Positions 38,991 through 64,000 are shown, numbered from the stretch's first letter. The stretch: DNA of 64,000 nt from an uncultured Anaerolineae bacterium (GCA_964487375.1 CAZAQA010000008.1:61402-125401), one strand, 5' to 3'. The notes: generated from the letters alone by a model not told the origin. Numbers and translations are program-made.

Positions 38991-39496
38991 TACTCCAGAT
39001 CTTCCTCCTCGGGCAAGATGTCCCAGGTGTCCAGCAGCCAGGCATCGGCAGCGATAAGGAGGGTCTCCGTTCCGGGGGCAGATTCAAAGATGAAGATGGG
39101 AACGCCCGTGTCCTCCTCTTCAGCGATCTCAACCAGTTGCATTCCACGATGGACTCGTTCGCTCAACAAGGACCGGATTTGCCGGAGTCCTTGCACATAA
39201 GGCTCCTGTTCGCTGGGGTAAATCATGGCGCTGTACAGCTCCAAGAGGTCACTGTCCTCGAAGTAGAGGTCCAGGTCGATGACGCTCTCGGAAGATTCCA
39301 GTTCCTCATCAGCGAGCTCCTCATCAGAGAGCTCCTCGGCCACGGTCGCGGCCAATGGCTCGGTCCAGAGGGTCACGCTCAAGACGAGCTGGCCGATCAA
39401 CTCTTCCAGTTGCAGCAACTGTTCCTCATCCAAAAGGGTCTCCAGAGAGAGATCGACGTCATCCGGAGGACCGTTGCCGTTGCTAGAGGCCGTCAT
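38990..39496 (-). CDS. Acidic hypothetical protein coupled to the phosphoesterase
   Basis: 168 aa from ATG 39496 with an AAAGGAG RBS; highly acidic (many E/D, e.g. EELSDEELADEELESSESVIDLDLYFEDSDLLE); the stop overlaps the phosphoesterase start (TAATG). Confidence 0.5.
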   Translation of the reverse strand: MTASSNGNGPPDDVDLSLETLLDEEQLLQLEELIGQLVLSVTLWTEPLAATVAEELSDEELADEELESSESVIDLDLYFEDSDLLELYSAMIYPSEQEPYVQGLRQIRSLLSERVHRGMQLVEIAEEEDTGVPIFIFESAPGTETLLIAADAWLLDTWDILPEEEDLE

Positions 39497-39865
39497 GGTG
39501 CTGCTCCTTTCTCCCTCACACCGCCTTCCACTCCGACATCGCCTGCTATCCTTGCTGCACCCAACGAGGTCACGAGAACCCGATGGGGCATAAGGGTTCA
39601 TGGACGCCGTCACGTCACTCCTATTCTACCACAGGTATGCCAGATCCTACGGACAATTGCATGCCGGGCCCACGATCGGCCGCACGTGGACCGGTATGCC
39701 GCCCGGGACCGGTACAACGCGGGGCGGGGCGAAGGGAAAAGGGTAAGCGAGAAGGTACTGCTCACACAAGGGAAAAGGCCTGCCTCCCCTTCATCGGGGA
39801 CAGCAGGCCTTGGTGTATCACGAATCATAGGGGATTGGCCATCCCCCCTATGTGATGCCGACGGT

Positions 39866-41521
39866 TTACTGGCCTATGGACAGGAAGGTGGCCGGCGCGG
39901 CCTTGGGCGTTACGAAGTGAATGTACGGATGGCCCGTGCCGGCGTGACAGGCGTTGCAACCCTGTACGGCCGCTTTGTAATCCTTCTCAAACGTCGTCTG
40001 GTCCTTCTCTTCAATGGCTTCGGCAAGCGGGTCCAGATAGGTGTGTTCGAAGTTCTTGAGCAGCTCAGCCTTCCCCGGCCGGGTGACCTCCCCGACCTCC
40101 TGGATCTCCCTCTGTTCCTTGAGCTCGTAAGCCGCCAAATCCCACTGTCCGGCTTCCGCCGCTGCCCAGACGTTGCCGAAGCGATAGGAGTATTCCATCA
40201 TTACCGTACCCAAACCCGGTTGAATGTTCCACAGGGCCAGGCTGCGGTCGGGCTTGTTGAAGAGGCCGTCGATCAGTGTCTTGGCATCCTCCAGGGTGGG
40301 ACGACCGGAGGGATAGGAGGGCTTGGTTGCCTGCGGGTGCTCTTCTTCTTCAGCCTTCTCCGGTTGGCTGGCTTTCAGTTGCAGGAACGGTTCCGGCGAG
40401 GTCGGCGGCATCTGGAAGTGGATGTACGGATGGCCGGTGCCGGCATGGCAGGCGTTGCAGCCTTCGATCGCGTCGGCGTAGGCTTTGTCGAACGCTGTCT
40501 TGTCCTGCGCCTCGACGGCTTTCATAACCGGGACCAGATAGGTGTGTTCGAAGTTCTTGAGCAGCTCGGCCTTCCCCGGGCGGGTGGTCTCACCCACTTC
40601 CTGGATCTCGGTCTGTTCCTTAAGCTCGTACTGCGCCAAGCCCCAGTCACCGGCGTCGGCCGCCTTTTTGGCCAAAGCGAAGCGCCGACTGTATTCCATC
40701 ATCACTGTGCCCAGACCCGGCTGGATGTCCCACAAGAGCAGACGGCGGTCGGGCTTGTTGAAGTAGCTACGGACCATCTGGTCCAGCTCTTGCCAGGTAA
40801 GCGGCTTGTCCGGTGCCGGGGTCGGTTTGGCTGTGGCCTTGTGTTCCTCTTCGGCGGCCGTCGGCTTGCTTGCCTCCAGCTTCAGGAAGTCCTCCGGGCT
40901 GACTTTCGGCGGGGTGTACTTAATGTACGGATGACCAGTCATGCCGTGACACCCGTTACATCCCCCTATAGCTGCGTTGTAGGCGTTGTCGAACGCCGTC
41001 TTGTCTTGCGCTTCGATTGCCTTCATGACCGGGTCCAGGTAGGCGTGCTCGAAGTTTTTCAGCAGGTCAGCCTTCTTCGGGCGGGTGGCCTCACCCACCT
41101 CTTGAATCTCGGTCTGCTCTTTGAGCTCGTACTGCGCCAGGCCCCAATCACCGGCGTCGGCTGCCGCCTTGACCTGGGCGAAACGCCGGGCGTACTCCAT
41201 CATCACGGTGCCCAGGCCGGGCTGAATGTCCCAGAGGGTTAGCTTGGGATCAATGTTATTGAACCTTTCCTCCAGAAGTTTTTGGACTTGGGCGGCCGTC
41301 ACGTCATTAGCCGCCGGAGCCTTGGTGGGGGCTGCTTTCGTTGGTGGCGCCTTTGTCGGCGCCTTTGTCGGCGGAATTTCGGTTGGCTTAGCCCGTGTAA
41401 CCGGAGCCTTCGTGGGCTGCGATGCGGGCGTTGAGGTGGCACCGCAGCCGGCAGCCAGTGTCGCCACCAGTGCGATGGACAACGTGACGATGAGAAATAT
41501 CCATTTCTTTTTCCTCATCAC
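39866..41521 (-). CDS. Lipoprotein composed of three tandem cytochrome c'-like (class II cytochrome c, C-terminal CxxCH) domains
   Basis: Lipobox LAAGCG; three ~165-aa repeats each ending with CNGCHGMTGH / CNACHAGTGH / CNACHAGTGH; the domain length and C-terminal heme motif match cytochrome c'. Confidence 0.75.
   Translation of the reverse strand: MMRKKKWIFLIVTLSIALVATLAAGCGATSTPASQPTKAPVTRAKPTEIPPTKAPTKAPPTKAAPTKAPAANDVTAAQVQKLLEERFNNIDPKLTLWDIQPGLGTVMMEYARRFAQVKAAADAGDWGLAQYELKEQTEIQEVGEATRPKKADLLKNFEHAYLDPVMKAIEAQDKTAFDNAYNAAIGGCNGCHGMTGHPYIKYTPPKVSPEDFLKLEASKPTAAEEEHKATAKPTPAPDKPLTWQELDQMVRSYFNKPDRRLLLWDIQPGLGTVMMEYSRRFALAKKAADAGDWGLAQYELKEQTEIQEVGETTRPGKAELLKNFEHTYLVPVMKAVEAQDKTAFDKAYADAIEGCNACHAGTGHPYIHFQMPPTSPEPFLQLKASQPEKAEEEEHPQATKPSYPSGRPTLEDAKTLIDGLFNKPDRSLALWNIQPGLGTVMMEYSYRFGNVWAAAEAGQWDLAAYELKEQREIQEVGEVTRPGKAELLKNFEHTYLDPLAEAIEEKDQTTFEKDYKAAVQGCNACHAGTGHPYIHFVTPKAAPATFLSIGQ
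39890..41390. repeat. Three ~500-bp tandem direct repeats inside the cytochrome gene
   Basis: e.g. gtgttcgaagttcttgagcagctc at 40044 and 40544, with a diverged copy near 41048; protein repeats 1 and 2 are ~80% identical. Confidence 0.7.
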
Positions 41522-41983
41522 GGGACTTCCTCCTTTTGCCTCAGATGTTAGGGGACCTTCGCCCTATACGATAAATAGTTTATTGCTCACACGTTGATGT
41601 TTCTCCTCGGACTACTCGATTCAGAGACAAAGCCGGACCGGCTCTTCTCGCTGGCAAGTCTGGACAACATTTTGGATACGTTCACCTCCTTTCCTCTCCT
41701 CGTTAATCGTCTGCTTGCCAGCAATTTTCAACGGTCCGTACCAGGGCATGGCAAACAAATGTACCCGCGGCGGAGATCGGCCTGTATCTAGTGTAGGAGG
41801 CTCAAGGTTCCCTGACTAGTCGTAAAATCCCCTATTTTTCGTGGGGAATTCTACGACCCAAGGAGGGCGTAGTGCTCTTCTTTTCACGGAAGAGGTGGAT
41901 TGGGATATCGTCTGTTGAGAAGAGTACGTGGAGGTGGAGGGGAAAGAAGACACGTGCAAGCAGGCCAACGTATTTCCACAAAA

Positions 41984-42649
41984 TCAGGTGACGTCGAGGA
42001 GTCCCTTGCGTACCGCGTAGCGGATTAACTCAGCGCGATCACGGAGGTTGAGTTTCTCCAGGAGGACGTTGCGGTATTTTTCGACTGTGCGGGGGCTAAT
42101 GTTGAGCTTTGCCCCAATCTCCCGATAGGTCAGACCCTGAGCAATGAGCCGTAACACTTCGCGCTCGCGCTCGGTCAAGCGGGCCAGGCGGTCGAATTCG
42201 TCGCCCGACTGGGCACGACGGATGTAATCGTCCAGGAGTAGTCTGGCGACGGAGGGATAGAGAAATACCCCGCCGGCAGCCACAACTCGTACTGCGGAGA
42301 AGAGTTCTTCCGGCGACGCTTCCTTGAGCACATAGCCGGAGGCGCCGGCGTTGATGGCCTGGAAGAAGTACCCTTCATCTTCATGCATGGTGAGGACCAC
42401 CACCTTGACCGGCCGCGGGAGGCTGAGGGACATAATCCGACGGGTTGCTTCCAGACCGTTGATATCGGGCATGCCCAGGTCCATGAGCACGATGTCCGGT
42501 TGTAATTCTTGTACTTTGGTCAATACGTCCCGACCGTTGTGGGCTTCGCCGATCACCTCGATATCCAATTGCGATTCCAGAAGCAAGCGGATTCCGGCCC
42601 GTACCACCGCGTGATCGTCGGCGATAAGAACCCGGATTTTAGTCGTCAT
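41984..42649 (-). CDS. Response regulator transcription factor, NarL/FixJ (LuxR-type HTH) family
   Basis: REC domain (IRVLIADDH...D...) plus C-terminal LuxR HTH (LTEREREVLRLIAQGLTYREIGAKLNISPRTVEKY). Confidence 0.9.
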   Translation of the reverse strand: MTTKIRVLIADDHAVVRAGIRLLLESQLDIEVIGEAHNGRDVLTKVQELQPDIVLMDLGMPDINGLEATRRIMSLSLPRPVKVVVLTMHEDEGYFFQAINAGASGYVLKEASPEELFSAVRVVAAGGVFLYPSVARLLLDDYIRRAQSGDEFDRLARLTEREREVLRLIAQGLTYREIGAKLNISPRTVEKYRNVLLEKLNLRDRAELIRYAVRKGLLDVT

Positions 42650-44622
42650 GAGGAGGACTCCTTAGTTCCTAACGGGAGGTCAACGACTATGGTGGTGCCG
42701 GCCCCAGGCGCTGATTTGATCTCAACAGTGCCGTCAAAGAGAGCGGCACGTTCTTGCATCCCCAGCAATCCCCATCCGCGACCGCTCTCATCGGACGGCA
42801 GGACGGAGGAGGGGACAAACCCCTGACCATCGTCTGAAACGGTCACATGCAACCGGGAATCGACTCGCCGGAGGGAAATTTCAACGCGAGAGGCCTTCGC
42901 ATGAAGGGCAACATTCATAATCGCCTCCTGGAGGATACGAAAGACCACTGTTTCCAGTTGAGGCGGCAGGCGGCCCTGTAGGCCCTCGGCGATCACCGAT
43001 ATTTTCAAGCCGGCGCGACGAGAGATGTGGTTGCTGTAGCGGCGTAATGCCTGAACCAGGCCCAAATCATCCAGGGCCGCCGGGCGCAGATCCAGGATAA
43101 TGGAACGCAGAGTGCCCATCATTGACGTGGCGATCTCGGAAGCATCCTCAAGGATGGTGACGGCACGCTCCGGGTCGGCGGGGAGGGCCGTGGCGGCGGC
43201 GCCGATTGTCATGCTCAGGCCGCTGAGTTCCTGTCCCAACTGGTCATGGAGATCACGAGCCACGCGGCGGCGTTCTTCTTCCTGGGCGGTGATGATCTTG
43301 TCCAGCAGCCGACCGCGTAAGGCATCCTTCTTTCGAATCTCCTCGTACAAACTGATATTCTCGATAGCCACGCCGATTTGCCGACCAATGGCCTTGAGCA
43401 AGCCCCAGTCGCCTTCGTCAAAAGGTTGGCCCTTGGAGTTCATCAAGTTGAGCACGCCAAGAGAGTTGTCCCTGGCCACAAGAGGGACAGAAACTCCATG
43501 CTGGAGGGGCATCCCGTCGATCTCCAGGGTGGACATGGGTGGACAGAAGTATGTTTCTAGGGGCGGGCTGACTTCACGAGTCTCCATGACATAGTGGCAA
43601 AGACAGCCCTCCACCCCTCCGTTGCAGGAGAGAACGGGTTCGGGAATGTGCAATTGACAGACAATGTGCATCCGGCCTTCTGAATCGGGCATGGTGATCC
43701 AACCGGCCGGTATACCCAACTCTTCCAGCACGCAGATCAGGGCGTCCCTCAGCATCTCTTGCATCCCCAGCGGCCGGGTCACGGTCAAAGCAACAGCGTT
43801 GAGAATTGTGCGATCGCGATCAGCAATTTCGTACTTTTGACGCTCGGCTGCCTCCAGGCGACGATCTGTTTCCACAACGAACACTTCTTGGCTAAGCCGG
43901 ATGAAATATGTCAGTCCCATCCCGATAATCGATCGCAAAAGGGGTACGGGGAAGCCAAGAGTACTGCTGAAGATCTGGTCATGCAGCCAACGGGTCCAGA
44001 GAATGTCATGGGGGGGTGTGATTAACCCGGAAAGCAGGGCGTAGGCGAAGAAAAGATAAGCAACGCGAGACATGTACGTCGCGATGCGCGGCAGAGCCAT
44101 ATCGCGTACGCGCCGTGACTGGCGTAAAAAGCCCACGCCACTGAGCAGAGAGCCTGGAAACCCCAGAAGCACGCGTACCCATATCTCCCCCGTAATGCGC
44201 AAATGGGCCAGGCTAAACGGTTCAACCATGTTGTTGATGCTTAAGACGACGAGCCATAACACAGTCATAGCAAGGGTGGGCACCCAGCGCCATCTTTGAT
44301 CGTAAGTGTCCGGTACGGTCAAACTCAAGCCAAACTGGAAGAGTGCGACAAACGACACGGACATCAAAAACAACTGTACAAGATTGAGGACCTGGACTAC
44401 AGAGGAGGGGAGATAACGAGCCTGAATGGGAATGAAAAGGTATCCCCATTCTGTCAGGCCGTGGGTCATGCCGAAGACCGCCAGCCAGGGCAAATAGCGG
44501 GCTATTTCCAGTTGGCTGTACTTGCGACTTTGTAGGACAACAGAAAGGCCCAGCGTGAAAAAGGCGAGCCCGTAAATGAAAAAGATAACCGGTTCGTTGA
44601 TTTCAAAGAACTGGTTTATCAT
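42646..44622 (-). CDS. Sensor histidine kinase: large N-terminal membrane domain, GAF, HisKA_3, HATPase_c
   Basis: ~250-aa multi-TM N-terminus, a GAF-like middle, H-box RVARDLHDQLGQ (HisKA_3), and G-boxes in the C-terminus; ATGA overlap with the response regulator gene. Confidence 0.85.
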   Translation of the reverse strand: MINQFFEINEPVIFFIYGLAFFTLGLSVVLQSRKYSQLEIARYLPWLAVFGMTHGLTEWGYLFIPIQARYLPSSVVQVLNLVQLFLMSVSFVALFQFGLSLTVPDTYDQRWRWVPTLAMTVLWLVVLSINNMVEPFSLAHLRITGEIWVRVLLGFPGSLLSGVGFLRQSRRVRDMALPRIATYMSRVAYLFFAYALLSGLITPPHDILWTRWLHDQIFSSTLGFPVPLLRSIIGMGLTYFIRLSQEVFVVETDRRLEAAERQKYEIADRDRTILNAVALTVTRPLGMQEMLRDALICVLEELGIPAGWITMPDSEGRMHIVCQLHIPEPVLSCNGGVEGCLCHYVMETREVSPPLETYFCPPMSTLEIDGMPLQHGVSVPLVARDNSLGVLNLMNSKGQPFDEGDWGLLKAIGRQIGVAIENISLYEEIRKKDALRGRLLDKIITAQEEERRRVARDLHDQLGQELSGLSMTIGAAATALPADPERAVTILEDASEIATSMMGTLRSIILDLRPAALDDLGLVQALRRYSNHISRRAGLKISVIAEGLQGRLPPQLETVVFRILQEAIMNVALHAKASRVEISLRRVDSRLHVTVSDDGQGFVPSSVLPSDESGRGWGLLGMQERAALFDGTVEIKSAPGAGTTIVVDLPLGTKESSS

Positions 44623-45205
44623 GGATAAACTCTAACGTATCCTCGTTCAGAGGTCAAAAAGGACATTCACTTCCCCCAATTTTACTCTCACTCCCCCTGG
44701 GCAGCAAGGAGCAAGACGGTACAAGAGACCACATTCGATTGCCGGTGTCCGGTCCGGATAGTGATAGGATCGCCCCCCTCCCTCGGGGCTTTTGCCTATG
44801 GCCCTGAGGGGGTGAGGGATGAGGGCTTGAACCTCATCCTCTTCCCTTCGCGACAAGACGGCCCCCCACACGCCCAGCGCCCCGTGGATTTTAGCATGGA
44901 GAAGCCCTAGTACCTGGTCAATCATGGAGTGATGGATAAGCCATGGACTTTCCTGAGCCAGGATCTCCAAGAACGGGGAGGCGAAAGCACTGCCTTCGTC
45001 CACCTCTGGCCGTACAGGCAAATGAATTCGGCAGCCCTGACCCTGTAGCGGGTCGCTTTTACTATCAGGAGACTTTTGACCGAGTCCTCGTTTCTGATCT
45101 GCCTCATTGGACAATCGGTTGCTCTCGGACTATAATGTAGGGCGTGGGGTAAATCTCCACGGACAACCTATTCGGGTGTCACTACCTTCAAAGGGGAGGG
45201 TTATC

Positions 45206-46471
45206 ATGAGTGACAAAGTAGTCGTGCAGGAATTGAATCCTTTCGCCATTGCACAAAGGCAGTTCGACGAAGCTGCCGATTTCCTCAAGCTGGACCGGGC
45301 CACACGTGAATTGCTCCGATGGCCCATGCGAGAGTTCCACTTCCAGATCCCCGTACGGATGGATGACGGATCGGTTCGTGTCTTCAAAGGATTCCGGGTC
45401 CAGTACAACGACGCCCGTGGACCGGCCAAGGGGGGCATCCGTTTCCATCCTAAAGAGACGATCGATACCGTACGAGCACTGGCCGCGTGGATGACCTGGA
45501 AGACAGCCGTTTTGGATCTGCCCTTGGGAGGCGGCAAAGGCGGCGTCATTTGTAATCCCAAGGAGCTGTCCGAGAAGGAGTTGGAGCGCTTGAGCCGGGG
45601 CTACATCCGCCAGGTCGCCCGCTTCATCGGGGCCAACGTGGATGTGCCTGCACCGGACGTGTACACCAACCCGCAGATTATGGCCTGGATGATGGACGAA
45701 TACGACACCATCGTGGGCCACAGTGAGCCCGGGGTGATCACCGGCAAGCCGGTGGAACTTGGAGGTTCGAAAGGACGCAACGATGCCACAGCACGAGGAG
45801 GCATTTACGCGGTCCGTGAGGCCGCGAAAGTCCTGGGGCTGGAGCTGAAGGGACAGCCTGTGGCCATTCAGGGGTACGGCAATGCCGGCTCCTATGCCCA
45901 CAAGCTGGCCGTGGAAATCCTGGGCATGAAAGTCGTTGCCGTCTCCGATTCTAAGGGCGGCATCTACGACCCGGATGGGCTCGACTACGAGCAGGTATTC
46001 GAGCACAAGATGCGCACCGGGTCGGTAGTGAATTTCCCCGACACCACACCCATCTCCAACGGGGAATTGCTGGAGCTGCCGGTCATGGTTCTTTTCCCGG
46101 CCGCGTTGGAGGATGTGATCACGCAGGAGAACGCGGGGCGCATCAAAGCCAAGATCGTCGCCGAGCTGGCCAACGGGCCGACGACGCCGGACGCCGACGT
46201 CATCCTGCACAAGAACGGCGTGTTCGTTATCCCCGACTTCCTCTGCAATGCCGGTGGGGTCACAGTGTCCTACTTCGAGCAAGTTCAGGATGCCATGAAC
46301 TATTACTGGACAGAGGAGGAAGTCTACCGTCGCCTGGACGAGAAGATGACCCGGGCCTTCCACGACGTGTATAACAAACTGGAGGAGACGGGCGTTCATC
46401 CTCGCCTGGCAGCCTATCTGGTTGCCGTTGACCGAGTCGCCAAGGCAACTCGGTTACGTGGCTGGGTGTGA
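45206..46471 (+). CDS. gdhA: Glu/Leu/Phe/Val dehydrogenase (glutamate dehydrogenase)
   Basis: KGGIRFHP (GGxK catalytic Lys region), GYGNAGSY Rossmann motif; start at ATG 45206 with an AAGGGGAGGG RBS. The ORF-track start 45107 is unsupported. Confidence 0.9.
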
Positions 46472-58425: not shown

Positions 58426-59898
58426 ATGCGCATATCGTTCATTGAGCCCAAGTGGAACCAGTTGGTCAACAGCTACCCATCGCTGGGATTGGGCTACCTG
58501 GCCGCGGTCGCGGAACAGGAAGGCCATGAGTGCCGCATCCACGATTTTGGCCTGCGCCCTCAGGTGCCCGTCGAGGAGGACGTGAAATCAGTGCTGGACT
58601 TCAAGCCGGACCTGGTGGCCTTCACTTCCATGACCACGTCGTACTACAGTGTGGAAAAGGCCGCGCAGATTATCAAAGAGGAACTTGGGGTCCCCATTAT
58701 TATTGGTGGCCCCCACGCCACGACCCTGCCGGAGGAGACCCTAAAGAATCCGAACATCAATTTCCTCATTTTTGGCGAGGGAGAGGTCGCCTGGCGCAAT
58801 TTCATCCAAGCCCTCGCCGCGGGAGACGACCGTTGGGACATGATCGCCGGGCTCTGGTATAAGACGGAAGACGGCACGATTGTGAGCGGGGGCAACGCGC
58901 CCCTGGTGAAGAACCTGGATGAGCTTCCTTTCCCGGCCCGACACCTGTTTGACCTGGAGGCATATCCCCTGTACGCGCCTAACGGGGAACGGATGATCAC
59001 TCTCATGTCCAGCCGGGGATGCCCGTATAACTGTTCGTTCTGCTTCAAGGGCATTGTAGGGCGCACCTACCGCCAGCGCAGCCCGGCGAATATCGTGGCC
59101 GAAATTCGCCAGATCATGGAATCGTATGGTACCCGCAATTTCTACTTCATCGATGACCTGTTCACCATCAACGTAAAACGGTTGGAGAAAATCCTCGATT
59201 ACATGATCGAAAGCGGGCTGGACATTCGTTTTCGCTGCCTGGCCCGGGTGGATCGGGTCACCCCGGAGCTGTTGAAGAAGATGTACAAGGCCGGATGTCG
59301 CCAAATTCACTACGGCATCGAGTCGGGCAACGAGGAGGTGCTGAAGCGCACGGCCAAGCACATCAACCTGGAGCAGGTGCGCCAGGCCGTGCAGTGGACG
59401 GAAGAAGCGGGCATTGCCAGCAAGGGGTATTTCATCCTCGGCCTGCCGGGAGACAACGAGCAGACCATCCAGGAGACCATCGAGTTCGCGGCCAGCCTGC
59501 CACTGACCGAGGCCATGTTCTCCATTGCCACGCCTTTCCCGGGCACCAAGCTGTGGCAAGAGCTCATCCGGCGACGACCGGAGTTGAAGTACAACGCGGA
59601 CTTCACCAAGGCCTACTATTATAACTCTTACACCTCAGAGATCGCCCCCTTTATGAACGTGTCGGATGTGTCGGACGAGGAGCTGAGCACACTGGCCATC
59701 AAGGCCCGGCAGCGTTTCCTGGAAGCCAAAGCGCGACGCACGTACCACAAGGCCTTTGGGCCCACCCTGGGCGAGGTCTTCTGGAAAGTCAGTCGCAACG
59801 AGGCTGTTCGATCCATGGGCCGTGGCCTGATGAACCTGGGCATGTTCAAGCGCTTCAAATATTACAAGACGGTTGGGGAGGCTGAATTGTGGTCGTAA
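58426..59898 (+). CDS. B12-binding domain-containing radical SAM protein (copy 2)
   Basis: MRISFIEPKW...[20 protein letters not shown] and SRGCPYNCSFC; AAGGAG RBS. Confidence 0.85.
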   Translation: MRISFIEPKWNQLVNSYPSLGLGYLAAVAEQEGHECRIHDFGLRPQVPVEEDVKSVLDFKPDLVAFTSMTTSYYSVEKAAQIIKEELGVPIIIGGPHATTLPEETLKNPNINFLIFGEGEVAWRNFIQALAAGDDRWDMIAGLWYKTEDGTIVSGGNAPLVKNLDELPFPARHLFDLEAYPLYAPNGERMITLMSSRGCPYNCSFCFKGIVGRTYRQRSPANIVAEIRQIMESYGTRNFYFIDDLFTINVKRLEKILDYMIESGLDIRFRCLARVDRVTPELLKKMYKAGCRQIHYGIESGNEEVLKRTAKHINLEQVRQAVQWTEEAGIASKGYFILGLPGDNEQTIQETIEFAASLPLTEAMFSIATPFPGTKLWQELIRRRPELKYNADFTKAYYYNSYTSEIAPFMNVSDVSDEELSTLAIKARQRFLEAKARRTYHKAFGPTLGEVFWKVSRNEAVRSMGRGLMNLGMFKRFKYYKTVGEAELWS

Positions 59899-61049
59899 AT
59901 GGAAACGGCAAGAAGCCGAAATCCACGCTGACGTTCGAACAGAAGTTACAACGAAAGTTCCGCTATTACCGACGCAAGGCCCTGCAGCCGGTACGCTGGC
60001 TGACGTACGAAAGCGGCCAGACACGCCTGGTGCCCCCCCCGGACCGGATGTACATCGAATCGACGAACATTTGCAACCTGAATTGCATTATGTGCCCCAC
60101 GGGCCTGAAGCAGATCACCCGGCCCCACGGGTTCATGGACTTTGAGGTGTTCAAGCAAATTGTGGACGAGATGGCGCCCTGGGTGAGTGCAACCACGTTG
60201 CACATCTGGGGCGAACCGTTGATGCACAAGCGCATTTTCGACATGGTGGCCTACTGCCGCCAAAAGGGGCTGCGGGCGGAAATCAGCACCAACGCTACGT
60301 TGCTGACGGAGGAGAAATCACGACGGCTACTGGACGCGGGTCTGGACGCGATTTACCTCTCCATCGATGGCCTGCGCCCGGAGACGTACGAGAACATTCG
60401 CGTCAGAGCGGATTTCGAGCGCACAAACACAAATATCCGCCGCTTCATCGAGCTGAAGGTGCAAGGGGACTATCACACCTACGTCAACATCCAGATCATC
60501 AAGATGAAGCAAACCCTGGACGAGATCCAGGAGTTCGTGCAGGTCTGGAGTCTGCCGGGAGTCGACCGCATCAACGTCAAGCCCTTCGACTCCTGGGCCG
60601 ACCAGATCGAGGAAATCTCGGAGTTGCGTCCGAACGAGGTGAAGCTGCCCCCTAGGCGCTGGGCCTGTCCCAACCTCTGGTATCACGTGCACATTTACTG
60701 GGATGGCTCCATTGCCATGTGCGACCGGGATTTCAACCTGGAATTCCCCCTGGGCAATGTCATCGACGAGGACGGCAAGGTCCGGGTCATGAAGAACTGG
60801 AACGGTCCGCAGATGCAGGAACTGCGGCGCCGCCATCTGGAGAACGACATGGCCGATGTGTCGCCCTGCAATTCCTGCACCGAATGGGCCTGGTGGAAGC
60901 CGGCACCCTTCTTCTCCCAGGGCAACCGCCCCGTGGAAGAGGGGAGCGCCCAGCGGCGGTTGAACACGTCGCCCAACGGCTCAGGGCCTATCGTCATCGG
61001 GCTGGATGAAATCGGGATGGTGGACGGGACGCAGGGAAGCAGTCAGTAG
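59889..61049 (+). CDS. Radical SAM protein with C-terminal SPASM/twitch-like Cys cluster
   Basis: CNLNCIMC (CxxxCxxC) and a C-terminal Cys-rich region (CPNLW...MCDRD...PCNSCTEW). The in-frame start is either GTG 59889 (10-nt overlap with the upstream gene) or ATG 60048. Confidence 0.75.
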   Translation: MVVNGNGKKPKSTLTFEQKLQRKFRYYRRKALQPVRWLTYESGQTRLVPPPDRMYIESTNICNLNCIMCPTGLKQITRPHGFMDFEVFKQIVDEMAPWVSATTLHIWGEPLMHKRIFDMVAYCRQKGLRAEISTNATLLTEEKSRRLLDAGLDAIYLSIDGLRPETYENIRVRADFERTNTNIRRFIELKVQGDYHTYVNIQIIKMKQTLDEIQEFVQVWSLPGVDRINVKPFDSWADQIEEISELRPNEVKLPPRRWACPNLWYHVHIYWDGSIAMCDRDFNLEFPLGNVIDEDGKVRVMKNWNGPQMQELRRRHLENDMADVSPCNSCTEWAWWKPAPFFSQGNRPVEEGSAQRRLNTSPNGSGPIVIGLDEIGMVDGTQGSSQ

Positions 61050-61099
61050 GAAACGAGACCAGCAAATGAGGACCACGTCTAGAGCCGAGGAGGAAGGCG

Positions 61100-62551
61100 A
61101 TGAAGACGACATTACTGTACGCGGGGATTGCCGGATACGGCTTCAACTCCTTGAGCCGCGGCATGGAAGCGGGATGGATTTCCCATGGGTTGGCCTCTAT
61201 CAGTGCGGCCGCCAAGGCGGAGGGATTCGAGATTGATTTAATCGACTTGCGAGCGCTGCAGGGCTGGGACCACTTTCGCGAGGAATTCAAGAAGCGAGAC
61301 CCGGATGTGGTCGGCGTGACGATGATGTCCGTGGACTACAATCCGGTCAAGCGCGCCTTGGCGATCATGAAGGAGGTCAAGCCGGAGGTGGTGATCGTCC
61401 TGGGCGGTGCCCATGTGACTTTGGCCCTGGACGACGCCCTGCGCATGCCCAACGTGGACTATCTGATCCTGCACGAGGGCGAAATCACCTTTCCCCGGCT
61501 CCTGCACGCGCTCAAGGATGGACGCCCACCGCGCCAGAAGGTCCTGCGGGGCATCACGCCCGACCTGGACAAGATCCCTTTCTCCGACCGCGATTTGTTC
61601 CTGCACGAATGGCGCAAGTGGGGCTACACCCTGGACAGCCCGGAGGTGCCCTTTGTCAAGGAGCTGCCGCCTCCTTTTGTGACGATCATCGCCGGGCGCG
61701 GGTGTGCGTACAAGTGCTCCTTCTGCAAGCCGGGTGAGGACTTGATTTTCGGCAAGCGGGTGCGTCGACGCTCGGTAGAGAATGTCATCGAAGAGCTGAA
61801 GATGCTGCGGGACAAGTACCATTTCGCCTCTTTCATGTTCCACGATGACTGCATCACCGAGGACCGGGAGTGGGTGATCGAGTTCTCCCGGCGCTACAAG
61901 GAGGAGGGATTCACTCAGCCCTTCTTCTGCCAGTCGCGCGCCGACATCATCACCCGTCACGAGGACATGGTGGCGCTGATGGCCGATGCCGGGTTGGCCG
62001 GGTACTTCATCGGCTTCGAGTCGGGCAACCAGCGGGTGCTCAACTTCCTGCGCAAGGGGACCACGGTCGAGCGCAACATCCGGGCCGCGAAGACGTGCAA
62101 GAAATACGGGCTGGCCATTTGGGCCAACTACATGATGGGCATTCCCACCGAGACCAGGGAAGAGGTCATGGACACGGTGCGGATGATCCGGGAGATCGAC
62201 CCGGACTACTTCAGCCCCTCCTTTTTCACGCCCCATCCGGGCACGGACCTGTACGATTACGTCATGGAGCACAACCTGAGCCTGATCACCGACTACGACC
62301 AGTATCGGCGCAACCCAACCGAACCCAAGATCAAGGGGCAGGACTATGAGTTCCTGAAGTGGGCGCGCGATTTCAGCCAGAAGCGCAAGTTCAAGAACCG
62401 CTTGCGCCGCGGGTTCCGGGCCTTCCGGGACAAGTGGCTGGACCCGCGTCGGTACATACGTAAGCTGCGCCGCATGTTGGGGCTTGACCGACCCGACACG
62501 CCCAGCCGTCCGCCGCAAACGGGCCAGCCTCATTGGCAGGTGACGGGATAG
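61100..62551 (+). CDS. B12-binding domain-containing radical SAM protein (copy 3)
   Basis: LGLASISAAAKAEGFEIDLIDL B12-like N-terminus and GRGCAYKCSFC; GAGGAAGG RBS. Confidence 0.85.
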   Translation: MKTTLLYAGIAGYGFNSLSRGMEAGWISHGLASISAAAKAEGFEIDLIDLRALQGWDHFREEFKKRDPDVVGVTMMSVDYNPVKRALAIMKEVKPEVVIVLGGAHVTLALDDALRMPNVDYLILHEGEITFPRLLHALKDGRPPRQKVLRGITPDLDKIPFSDRDLFLHEWRKWGYTLDSPEVPFVKELPPPFVTIIAGRGCAYKCSFCKPGEDLIFGKRVRRRSVENVIEELKMLRDKYHFASFMFHDDCITEDREWVIEFSRRYKEEGFTQPFFCQSRADIITRHEDMVALMADAGLAGYFIGFESGNQRVLNFLRKGTTVERNIRAAKTCKKYGLAIWANYMMGIPTETREEVMDTVRMIREIDPDYFSPSFFTPHPGTDLYDYVMEHNLSLITDYDQYRRNPTEPKIKGQDYEFLKWARDFSQKRKFKNRLRRGFRAFRDKWLDPRRYIRKLRRMLGLDRPDTPSRPPQTGQPHWQVTG

Positions 62552-62574
62552 GATGTCATTCTCGGATCGAGCCG

Positions 62575-62898
62575 ATGAGCACAACATTCGAAAGAATACA
62601 ACACTTGGTAGCAAACGGAGATGTCCTGATTTCGCGTCACGGATATAACGAATTAGCACAGGATGGGATTTCCGTTCAGGAGGTGGTTGAGGGACTTTAT
62701 GAGGCTATCTTGGTGGAGGACTACCCTGAGTATTACAAGGGGCCGTGCGTGTTAGTCCTCCAATACGATAAGAAAGGTTGTCCCATTCACGTCGTATGGG
62801 GAATACCTCGGGGCAAAGATTCTCCCGCTGTTCTCGTAACAGCGTACAGACCGGATCCTGAAAAGTGGGATAAGACGTTTCGGAGACGAAAGAAATGA
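62575..62898 (+). CDS. DUF4258-family toxin-like protein
   Basis: 107 aa from ATG 62575: ...ISRHGYNELAQDGISVQEV...HVVWGIP...VLVTAYRPD matches the DUF4258 profile from memory; noticeably AT-richer than its flanks. Confidence 0.6.
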   Translation: MSTTFERIQHLVANGDVLISRHGYNELAQDGISVQEVVEGLYEAILVEDYPEYYKGPCVLVLQYDKKGCPIHVVWGIPRGKDSPAVLVTAYRPDPEKWDKTFRRRKK

Positions 62899-63113
62899 AG
62901 AAGGTCAGACGTCAGAAGGAATTTGTGCACGTCGGTGACTATGTGGCAGAAGTCGACATTGGCGTTATTTACACAGATGATGAATGGTCTCCTTATATTT
63001 CCTTGGAGGATGCGCGACGGTTGGATGAAGTGCGAGAAGCCTTAAGAGCAGGAGACCTGAAAAGGGCTGCTACAATGGCGCGAGTTTATAAGCTCGTTCC
63101 TGTGGCCGCGTAA
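62895..63113 (+). CDS. Small partner protein of the DUF4258 gene (putative antitoxin)
   Basis: 72 aa; ATGA overlap with the DUF4258 stop; no motif recognised. Confidence 0.45.
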   Translation: MKKVRRQKEFVHVGDYVAEVDIGVIYTDDEWSPYISLEDARRLDEVREALRAGDLKRAATMARVYKLVPVAA

Positions 63114-63177
63114 CTCGGAGTGCTTATATTCGGAGCGATTGGAAATCGTGAATCTCTTTCCGTGGGGAATCCTATAA

Positions 63178-64000
63178 ATGCGCGTTTTGTTAGCCAGTCC
63201 AGAAAGTAAGGTCTGGAGTTCGAGGAAACATATTCCGTTGGGCCTGGGCTACCTGGCCGCGGTGCTGCGCGAGGCCGGCCACGAGCCCATGATCTACGAC
63301 GCCGCGGTGGAGGATGTGCCCATCACCTATTACCTCGACCGGGCCGAGGAAGAAGGACGCCCCTACCGCATGGTGGGCATCACCGCCACCACGCCCCTCA
63401 TCGAGGAGGCGTGGGACATGGCCCTGGAGGTGAAGAAGCGTTACGGCGTTTACACCATCCTCGGCGGCCCCCACCTGACCATCATGCCGATGGAAACCAT
63501 GGAACAAAAGCCGTGGGTGGATTTTGTCTTTCGCGGGGAAGCGGAGCACGGCCTTGTGGAGCTTGTAGACGCACTGGAATCAGGGCGTGACTACGGGGGC
63601 ATCCCGGGACTTTTCTTCCGCCATGGCGAGGACATCATTCCCTCCTCGGAATCGCCCATGATCGAGGATTTGGACGCGCTCCCCTTTCCCGCACACGACC
63701 TGTTCAAAATCGAACGCTACACCAACCTCCAGCCCTTGACCGACGGGCTGGACCCACACGCGCGTTCTTACACTATTCTCACCAGTCGCGGTTGCCCCTT
63801 CCAATGCACCTTCTGCTCCAAGCCCGTCACCGGAGACACGTGGCGGGGGCGGTCGGTGGAGAACGTCATCGCCGAGTGGCGCTGGCTGGTGCGCGACCTG
63901 GGCGCGACGGAAATCGGCATTACCGACGACATCTGGAACTTGAAACTGGACCGGGCTAAGGCCATCTGTAAGCGATTGATCGAGGAGGACCTGAATGCCG
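63178..64000 (+). CDS. B12-binding domain-containing radical SAM protein (copy 4), 3'-truncated by the window end
   Basis: ATG at 63178; [13 protein letters not shown]...[20 protein letters not shown], then [12 protein letters not shown]; the frame stays open to position 64000. Confidence 0.8.

Follow-up and report, generated by a model that had tools for sequence, protein, structure and literature searches.

A candidate two-component system and its likely target gene, a lipid-anchored three-domain c-type cytochrome, in an uncultured Anaerolineae bacterium

Introduction

In the HrrSA and ChrSA two-component systems, the kinase is partnered by a regulator of the NarL type, which controls genes for haem proteins and respiration. 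The kinases HrrS and ChrS of Corynebacterium are polytopic and have been proposed to sense haem within the membrane (PMC5812335). The NarXL and NarQP systems pair a periplasmic four-helix nitrate sensor and a HisKA_3 transmitter with a regulator composed of a receiver and a GerE domain, and use paired half-sites near the -35 region. The locus described here occupies positions 39866–44622 of a 64,000-nt window (the whole stretch of DNA analyzed, to which all positions refer unless another locus is named) from an uncultured Anaerolineae bacterium (GCA_964487375.1, CAZAQA010000008.1:61402-125401), and encodes, head to tail on the minus strand, a sensor histidine kinase, a NarL/LuxR-type response regulator, and a c-type cytochrome lipoprotein with three domains. 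The resemblance of its kinase to HrrS and ChrS (PMC5812335), polytopic and without large loops, is one of architecture only, with seven predicted transmembrane (TM) helices compared to six and with an extra GAF domain. The transmitter, the build of the regulator, and the predicted half-sites near the -35 region are shared with NarXL and NarQP, but the sensor is a seven-helix (7-TM) bundle followed by a cysteine-rich GAF domain.

Low-spin four-helix cytochromes, such as Rhodopseudomonas palustris c-556 and E. coli b562, coordinate haem through a His/Met pair, in which the Met is close to the beginning of helix 1 and the His close to where helix 4 ends. Among monoderm bacteria, the lipoprotein cytochromes c (Bacillus c-551 and heliobacterial c-553) carry a small haem domain as an electron shuttle on a lipobox and a flexible Pro/Ala-rich tether. 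Cytochromes c' (PF01322; Alcaligenes xylosoxidans c', PDB 1E83/2YKZ) are soluble (homo)dimers of an up-down four-helix bundle in which CxxCH ends helix 4. The present cytochrome combines elements of each. It has the signal peptide, lipobox Cys, and Pro/Ala-rich tether of c-551 and c-553, but three class II-like bundles in place of their one class I domain (Cytochrom_C fold). It has the bundle and CxxCH position of cytochrome c', and aligns with it over helices 3–4, including the G-x-x-x-R-P turn and the A-x-D…F/L…G-x-C-x-x-C-H segment, whereas the Met in helix 1, the Q-P-G-L-G-T-V-M and E-I-Q-E-V-G-E-T-T-R-P motifs, and the arrangement of three tandem domains on a lipid anchor set it apart; nothing in the domains points to a vacant sixth site. 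The placement of its Met and His suggests the geometry of c-556 and b562, with no sequence similarity to b562.

Results

Gene order and conservation of the locus

The kinase gene (42646–44622, minus strand) was identified from its open reading frame (ORF) and Pfam domains and encodes a protein of 658 aa with a 7-TM sensor, GAF, HisKA_3, and HATPase_c domains. It overlaps by 4 nt the regulator gene (41984–42649, minus strand), whose product of 221 aa has a receiver at residues 7–121 and a GerE helix-turn-helix at residues 157–212 (Pfam and NCBIfam). After a spacer of 462 nt follows the cytochrome gene (39866–41521, minus strand; 551 aa), with possible starts at a GTG (41521) and an ATG (41518). 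A first-pass annotation, in which a model had read the sequence alone, placed a two-component pair upstream of the cytochrome on the same strand, and ORFs and Pfam domains agree with it.

The order of kinase, regulator, and cytochrome is conserved in three orthologous loci (L004, L011, and L012), the flanks of which differ from those of the window. The cytochromes of these loci are 68–75% identical to that of the window and the kinases 73–75%. A protein 100% identical to the window cytochrome is present in the public collection (P0001), and identical copies occur on contigs from three separate Joint Genome Institute (JGI) metagenome samples, while the nearest genome matches belong to Ardenticatenales and other Chloroflexota metagenome-assembled genomes (MAGs).

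A conserved motif and spacing upstream of the cytochrome gene

The regulator–cytochrome spacers of the four loci (the window and its three orthologues) are unalignable save for one invariant block, AATAGGGGATTyTACsACTrG, and all four contain the exact 10-mer ATAGGGGATT. Elsewhere among 90 loci this 10-mer occurs only once, as an inverted copy just after the cytochrome gene of the window. The conserved arm in the window is the promoter-proximal half-site ATAGGGGATTTTACGAC (41819–41835, minus strand), the predicted operator of the regulator. A second copy of GGGGAT lies 24 nt upstream of this site, and in the three orthologous loci it reads GGGGATA(C/T) and is direct or self-palindromic. In the window lineage only, the upstream copy is inverted (distal half-site GGGGAATTCTACGAC, 41843–41857, plus strand), and it is this inversion that creates a palindrome with 16-nt arms. 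The only further matches to the operator across the window, beyond the two arms, are at the level of chance, and the motif is absent from the upstream regions of more distant cytochrome genes.

The sole TAnnnT hexamer within the 60 nt after the motif stands exactly 40 nt from the start of ATAGGGGATT in all four loci (TACACT, TATCCT, TATACT, and TATACT), and a -35-like hexamer (TAGTCA, TGGTCG, or TAGGCA) stands 17 nt ahead of this -10-like hexamer. In the window, the promoter predicted by consensus (41790–41818, minus strand) would consist of TAGTCA (41813–41818), a 17-nt spacer, and TACACT (41790–41795). From its conserved position and spacing, the arm abuts the -35 region of a likely promoter. 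The predicted 5' untranslated region (UTR; 41522–41783, minus strand) is ~265 nt long, and 300–320 nt in the orthologues; Rfam returned no match for it, and no block within it is conserved. A possible ORF of 27 codons (MLSRLASEKS…) follows an AGGAGG within this UTR in the window only.

The palindrome at 41819–41857 had been noted at first pass as an imperfect one with 16-bp arms. It is real, with complementarity at 13 of 16 positions as DNA (15 of 16 in minus-strand RNA by virtue of G·U pairs), and lies 127 nt past the stop codon of the regulator gene. The corresponding RNA hairpin has a predicted energy of -27.6 to -27.8 kcal/mol and a z-score of about -3.5 to -3.7. As a hairpin it is not conserved: the z-score of the region is about -3.7 in the window versus -0.7, -0.7, and -2.0 in the three orthologues, with different folds, and what is kept is one arm and its spacing to the -10-like hexamer. 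A simple terminator of the regulator gene, the alternative raised along with the palindrome, is not borne out, as the stem is followed by UAGUCAGG with no U tract, the terminator scan returned no entry for it, and Rfam gave no match across 39.5–45.2 kb.

Beyond the cytochrome stop codon, on the minus strand (39775–39852), a hairpin formed by CATAGGGG…CCCCTATG (39826–39852) is followed by a GC-rich hairpin (39775–39812) and UUCCCUU; the region folds at -50.4 kcal/mol (z -3.8), and the GC-rich hairpin with UUCCCUU is likely the terminator of the cytochrome gene. The first of these hairpins holds the inverted ATAGGGGATT on the plus strand, such that the motif brackets the cytochrome gene in the window, a copy that is absent in the three orthologous loci.

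Architecture of the cytochrome and relation to cytochrome c'

The N-terminus of the cytochrome reads MRKKKWIFLIVTLSIALVATLAAG-C, a signal peptide and lipobox (…TLAAG-C26; 41444–41521, minus strand) leading into a Pro/Thr/Lys/Ala-rich (PTKAP-rich) linker. The LAAGC lipobox, which was called by eye against the lipobox pattern, has the invariant Cys of bacterial lipoproteins, and a Cys after a hydrophobic stretch is retained in five homologues (P0003, P0004, P0005, P0010, and P0023). Three repeat units follow on the minus strand with an exact period of 501 nt (167 aa). Unit 1 (40871–41371; residues 51–217) contains Met107 (41201–41203) and CNGCH at residue 188 (40946–40960), unit 2 (40370–40870; residues 218–384) contains Met274 (40700–40702) and CNACH at residue 355 (40445–40459), and unit 3 (39869–40369; residues 385–551), the unit that was modelled, contains Met441 (40199–40201) and CNACH at residue 522 (39944–39958). 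The lipoprotein with three tandem domains, each bearing CNxCH, is therefore as it had been described at first pass. It is the sole CxxCH protein encoded in the window. A separate ORF of 701 aa (39137–41242, plus strand) runs antisense through the entire cytochrome gene and itself has three repeats. This ORF is a side effect of the repeated, GC-rich coding sequence of the opposite strand and is absent from public gene calls.

For unit 3, AlphaFold2 (AF2) predicts an up-down bundle of four helices (34–52, 56–76, 78–100, and 104–124; pLDDT 88.6), in which CNACH (118–122) forms the C-terminal end of helix 4, the placement of the haem motif in cytochrome c' that had been anticipated. Cytochrome c' (Cytochrom_C_2, PF01322) is the sole recurrent Pfam match of the domains. 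The whole protein scores 31.3 bits versus a gathering cut-off of 26.5, a value reached by summing three partial matches to the last 30–40 profile positions. The check proposed at first pass, PF01322 on each repeat, gives 18.3, 13.8, and 17.5 bits, each below the cut-off and with helix 4 alone aligned, and four single-domain relatives score 0–19.7 bits, all below the cut-off as well. Comparison by hhalign to the cytochrome c' of A. xylosoxidans (its sequence entered by hand) gives a probability of 83% over residues 73–125, helices 3–4, while the same type of comparison with cytochrome b562 yields no similarity. A profile of 57 domains has weak cytochrome c' matches among PDB sequences (E 0.1–0.5) at residues 78–121, helix 4. 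Matches of this profile to a 'cytochrome c555 trimer' and to ribosomal S20 were rejected as spurious, and a search of PDB sequences with the whole cytochrome returned a low-complexity match to the linker and nothing else. Foldseek identified cytochromes c' as the best haem-protein matches of the unit 3 model in the PDB, at a TM-score of ~0.5 and E > 0.5, the poor E-value being due to the generic nature of four-helix bundles. The identification as cytochrome c' therefore stands in part: the only consistent Pfam, PDB, and profile matches are to c', but homology does not extend over the full domain, with helices 1–2 unaligned. From sequence and model, the domains would be remote relatives of the class II cytochromes c (c') that fail plain family membership.

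An exhaustive profile search with the domain family recovered 1,724 clusters (50% identity) at E ≤ 0.001, 514 of them at E ≤ 1e-10, from Chloroflexota, Planctomycetota, Deinococcota, Campylobacterota, NC10, Proteobacteria, and Archaea. Nearly all of the best 150 matches listed are single-domain proteins, mostly of 160–250 aa, and about eight clusters have three domains.

A near-invariant methionine and the company of quinol-oxidizing complexes

Where helix 1 begins, 324 of 326 domains in the protein set have a Met, as do all 90 genome copies from many phyla, counts which were taken without requiring a Met. In the unit 3 model this Met is found three residues into helix 1 and shares an end of the bundle with the haem His. 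This Met is probably the sixth ligand of a low-spin His/Met haem. Since it is placed like the sixth ligand of c-556 and b562, electron transfer fits better than the binding of nitric oxide (NO) or carbon monoxide (CO).

The genomic context of the relatives is one of electron transfer. In seven Anaerolineae-type MAG loci (L035, L047, L061, L078, L080, L082, and L085; e.g., L085:669-5845), a single-domain member of 174–177 aa, anchored in the membrane by its N-terminus, opens an operon whose next genes encode a Rieske protein, a fusion of cytochrome b with cytochrome c, and another cytochrome c. Beyond these operons, on the opposite strand, are a NarL-type regulator and a 7-TM kinase. Among Dehalococcoidales a single-domain member precedes NrfC, NrfD, and a cytochrome c. 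Of the three-domain members, that at L050 belongs to a Rieske/cytochrome b cluster which also encodes multihaem proteins of the NapC and c7 types, that at L071 has an MtrC-like cytochrome as its neighbour, and that at L009 is part of a molybdopterin oxidoreductase cluster. At the C-terminus, many homologues have a fused class I cytochrome c domain or two more CxxCH motifs. No NO-metabolism genes were found near the cytochrome gene of the window. The NO- or CO-binding role suggested at first pass is at odds with the near-invariant Met, which fits a sixth ligand, and with the presence of relatives in quinol-oxidizing operons.

Age of the repeats

The first-pass annotation had reported direct repeats of ~500 bp at ~80–85% identity and had taken them for a recent tandem duplication in a recombination-prone gene. 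The period is correct, but DNA identity between units is 60–67% over the full 501 nt and 67–71% over a 411-nt core, and only reaches 69–79% in the best stretches of 86–300 nt. The longest exact runs common to the unit pairs are 16, 12, and 34 nt, and different codons are used at 31–50% of the amino-acid positions that are identical between units.

A homologue search returned 138 matches at E ≤ 0.001, the best 120 of which were examined, and 91 of these 120 have three complete domains. In every domain of the 91, the spacing from the IQPGLGTVM motif to CxxCH is exactly 89 residues. For 257 of 273 domains the nearest relative is the domain at the same position in another protein, and the triplication must consequently be older than the divergence of, at the least, the clade of 32 proteins to which the window protein belongs. 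The nearest-neighbour analysis of domains retains no positional signal between the two large clades, and one old triplication and two are therefore indistinguishable. Identities of 62–71% between domains within a protein, higher than those to distant orthologues, had hinted at gene conversion or concerted evolution, an explanation that was overruled by the positional orthology.

Judged from these sequences, the triplication is old. Neither a recent duplication nor a tendency to recombine is upheld, given the age of the repeats and a DNA identity of 60–71%. It is scarcely credible that the repeats are a recent event or a product of assembly; the exact 501-nt period speaks for it, but the divergence of the units and their codons, the positional orthology across 91 proteins, and the identical protein in several independent metagenome assemblies all contradict it. 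A collapsed or inflated repeat count, a concern voiced at first pass, is excluded by the same protein in the three JGI samples and by orthologues with three domains, and the suggested comparison of domain number in relatives gave the same count of three in the orthologues and in the 91 homologues.

The kinase, its sensor, and its neighbours

The kinase and regulator domains are recognized with confidence (HisKA_3 E 5e-17, HATPase_c E 2e-14, GAF_2 E 1e-11; Response_reg E 5e-29, GerE E 6e-19) and identify a HisKA_3 kinase with GAF and a NarL/FixJ-type regulator with a receiver and a GerE/LuxR helix-turn-helix. Against the NCBIfam equivalogs, scores stay well short of the cut-offs (NarL 157.9 vs 250, NarQ 81 vs 553, and NarX 65 vs 578), and neither protein is thus NarX or NarL itself. 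The sensor domain (43813–44622, minus strand; residues 1–270) has no Pfam match and was modelled by AF2 (pLDDT 89, pTM 0.85) as seven long TM helices with short loops, with helix 7 continuing into the signalling helix; the model and the Pfam GAF_2 match agree with the polytopic membrane domain and GAF seen at first pass. A fold search with the sensor returned generic GPCR-like 7-TM matches only (E 0.01–0.1). Invariant residues in the alignment include H54, W59, R150, and Y194, inside the predicted membrane helices. The GAF domain (43360–43764, minus strand; residues 287–421; Pfam GAF_2) has five Cys conserved in the four orthologous kinases (…C-x~9-C-x6-C-x-C-x~18-C…), a pattern that hints at a metal, Fe-S, or redox site. 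GAF is present only in the kinases of the window clade, and other kinases of the 7-TM family are without it. The transmitter (42667–43275, minus strand) comprises HisKA_3 (residues 450–517) and HATPase_c (residues 559–652), both from Pfam. A promoter-like TTGACC-17-TAGAGT (44629–44657, minus strand) ends 6 nt ahead of the kinase ATG (44622), a distance at which the kinase–regulator mRNA may be leaderless.

Homologues of the 7-TM domain adjoin the cytochrome family in the Anaerolineae Rieske/cytochrome b loci (37–39% identity, E 1e-43 to 1e-54) and also at the L007, L015, and L050 cytochrome loci. Those beside the family in Campylobacterota are more distant (25–27% identity, E ~1e-13) and have a HisKA transmitter and an OmpR-type regulator. 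Overall, 18 of 85 non-redundant cytochrome loci have a 7-TM kinase within 4 kb; the genes are arranged in at least six different ways, and the partner is of the NarL type in some and of the OmpR type in others. In the reverse test, in which 80 metagenome loci were selected by the kinase domain alone, the cytochrome family was present in just one, and the homologue from Symbiobacteriaceae adjoins an NrfD/4Fe-4S/molybdopterin enzyme instead; a strict cytochrome–kinase module was rejected on both counts. Neighbours in the kinase-centred loci were DoxX (13 loci), an EB_dh haem-b domain protein (10), a pair of small polytopic membrane proteins (14), and a c-type cytochrome with at least three CxxCH (8). 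These categories are non-exclusive, such that their sum corresponds to at most 45 of the 72 loci with neighbours, and six 'u278' loci were left out of the count as an antisense artefact of the regulator gene. The 7-TM kinase family appears to have membrane and extracytoplasmic redox proteins at large as its clients, the present cytochrome among them.

The small polytopic pair found by many 7-TM kinases (~138 and 193 aa; L114, L123, L136, L138, L141, L149, L170, and others, e.g., L149:7318-8362) has no Pfam match. The larger protein has conserved His in its helices (HGM…, WHxFGMExKEHVAW) and is reminiscent of a haem-b membrane protein.

Other features of the window

Two paralogues of glutamate dehydrogenase (ELFV_dehydrog) lie within ~7 kb, upstream of the kinase gene (45107–46471, plus strand, in the window; L001:1257-2516, minus strand), and a universal stress protein gene sits between them. 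Toward the end of the window (58426–64000, plus strand), several consecutive ORFs have alike N-termini (…GLGYLAAV…EGHE…), a similarity which suggests a run of paralogous enzymes.

Discussion

On balance, the locus is likely to combine a two-component system with its target gene, one that encodes a lipid-anchored, extracytoplasmic electron carrier with three haems and is transcribed from its own promoter. The 7-TM/GAF kinase would phosphorylate the NarL-type regulator, which would then bind the two GGGGAT(T/A)yTAC half-sites of the palindrome next to the -35 region. Transcription of the cytochrome gene would start from its own promoter, with the -10-like hexamer at 41790–41795, and would probably be activated. 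The three haems, in four-helix domains and with low-spin His/Met ligation, would carry electrons and not bind gas, and the cytochrome would shuttle electrons at the outer face of the membrane between a quinol-oxidizing complex and a terminal acceptor. The proposed binding by the regulator, the direction of regulation, and the signal are read from sequence, and the role as an electron carrier from sequence and model. The regulatory link to the two-component pair, regarded at first pass as plausible, is likely in light of the gene order kept in three orthologous loci and the conserved ATAGGGGATT with its 40-nt spacing, and the palindrome is a sensible target for an electrophoretic mobility shift assay.

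Several observations weigh against this interpretation. The -35 hexamer is weak (4/6), the promoter scan did not call the cytochrome promoter, and the length of the 5' UTR is unexplained. No obvious redox partner for the cytochrome is encoded in the window, and the conserved Met alone is no proof of ligation. The individual domains fall below the Pfam cut-off, and the fold matches to cytochromes c' have E-values above 0.5. The three-domain homologues at L005 and L009 have no two-component system nearby, and the reverse test found the cytochrome family beside one kinase in 80.

The alternatives differ in what they make of the haem and of the palindrome. Were the domains true cytochromes c', a five-coordinate haem would bind NO or CO, and the kinase and regulator would respond to that ligand. 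The four-helix bundle and placement of CxxCH match c', PF01322 is the best Pfam match with a whole-protein score above its cut-off, hhalign supports c' over helices 3–4, and the NO-binding Kusta0087/88 bundle appears among the fold matches at rank 41. All the same, a near-invariant Met occupies the place where the sixth ligand would sit, the per-domain scores and unaligned helices 1–2 fall short of c', the relatives belong to NrfCD and Rieske/cytochrome b operons and show fusions with class I cytochrome c, and NO-metabolism genes are missing nearby, all of which makes gas binding distinctly unlikely. The palindrome, in turn, might be an RNA element (a terminator, processing site, or stabilizing hairpin) at the 3' end of the kinase–regulator transcript. 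Its folding energy, its position after the regulator gene, and a pairing that is better as RNA than as DNA are what such an element would have, but a U tract, a terminator call, and an Rfam match are all lacking, and in the three orthologous loci the hairpin is missing or different while one arm is invariant at a fixed 40-nt spacing. An RNA element is accordingly unlikely, and a pair of predicted half-sites for the regulator is the best reading of the palindrome.

A further explanation accepts the electron carrier and alters its relation to the kinase. The cytochrome could be both signal partner and target, the two proteins forming a sensing module, with the kinase reading its redox or haem state, or haem or quinone in the membrane, in the manner of HrrS and ChrS. 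In support of this, one and the same 7-TM domain is found with the cytochrome family in different phyla despite differing transmitter and regulator families, up to 45 of 72 kinase-side loci have DoxX, EB_dh, the small polytopic pair, or a multihaem cytochrome, invariant residues lie inside membrane helices joined by short loops, and there is the precedent of the haem sensing within the membrane proposed for HrrS and ChrS (PMC5812335). But adjacency is equally explained by plain regulation of a target gene, the likeness to HrrS and ChrS is architectural, and only one of the 80 kinase-centred loci has the present cytochrome, and this explanation is considered rather doubtful. A broader, speculative, and rather improbable extension is that the 7-TM domain represents a family of intramembrane sensors not described before, which may detect haem, quinone, or redox state and would be dedicated to haem and redox proteins outside the cytoplasm. 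At the present locus the cytochrome, as partner and target, would report the flow of electrons outside the membrane and the Cys-rich GAF would provide a second, cytoplasmic redox input.

The interpretation as a two-component system with an electron-carrier target overturns no current view, and the findings instead supply missing pieces of the respiratory chains in phyla that have been little studied. The locus yields a testable regulatory prediction, consisting of two half-sites, a promoter, and the cognate regulator, and draws attention to a 7-TM kinase sensor, as yet unannotated, that keeps company with haem proteins. Large and widespread as it is, the family of cytochrome domains lacks a dedicated Pfam model, and a literature search found no paper on the family and no characterized member. 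Within the Rieske/cytochrome b operons of Anaerolineae, the single-domain form may be an unrecognized counterpart (subunit) of cytochrome c1 or f, and the lipoprotein with three domains would serve as a tethered wire for electrons in bacteria generally regarded as being without an outer membrane.

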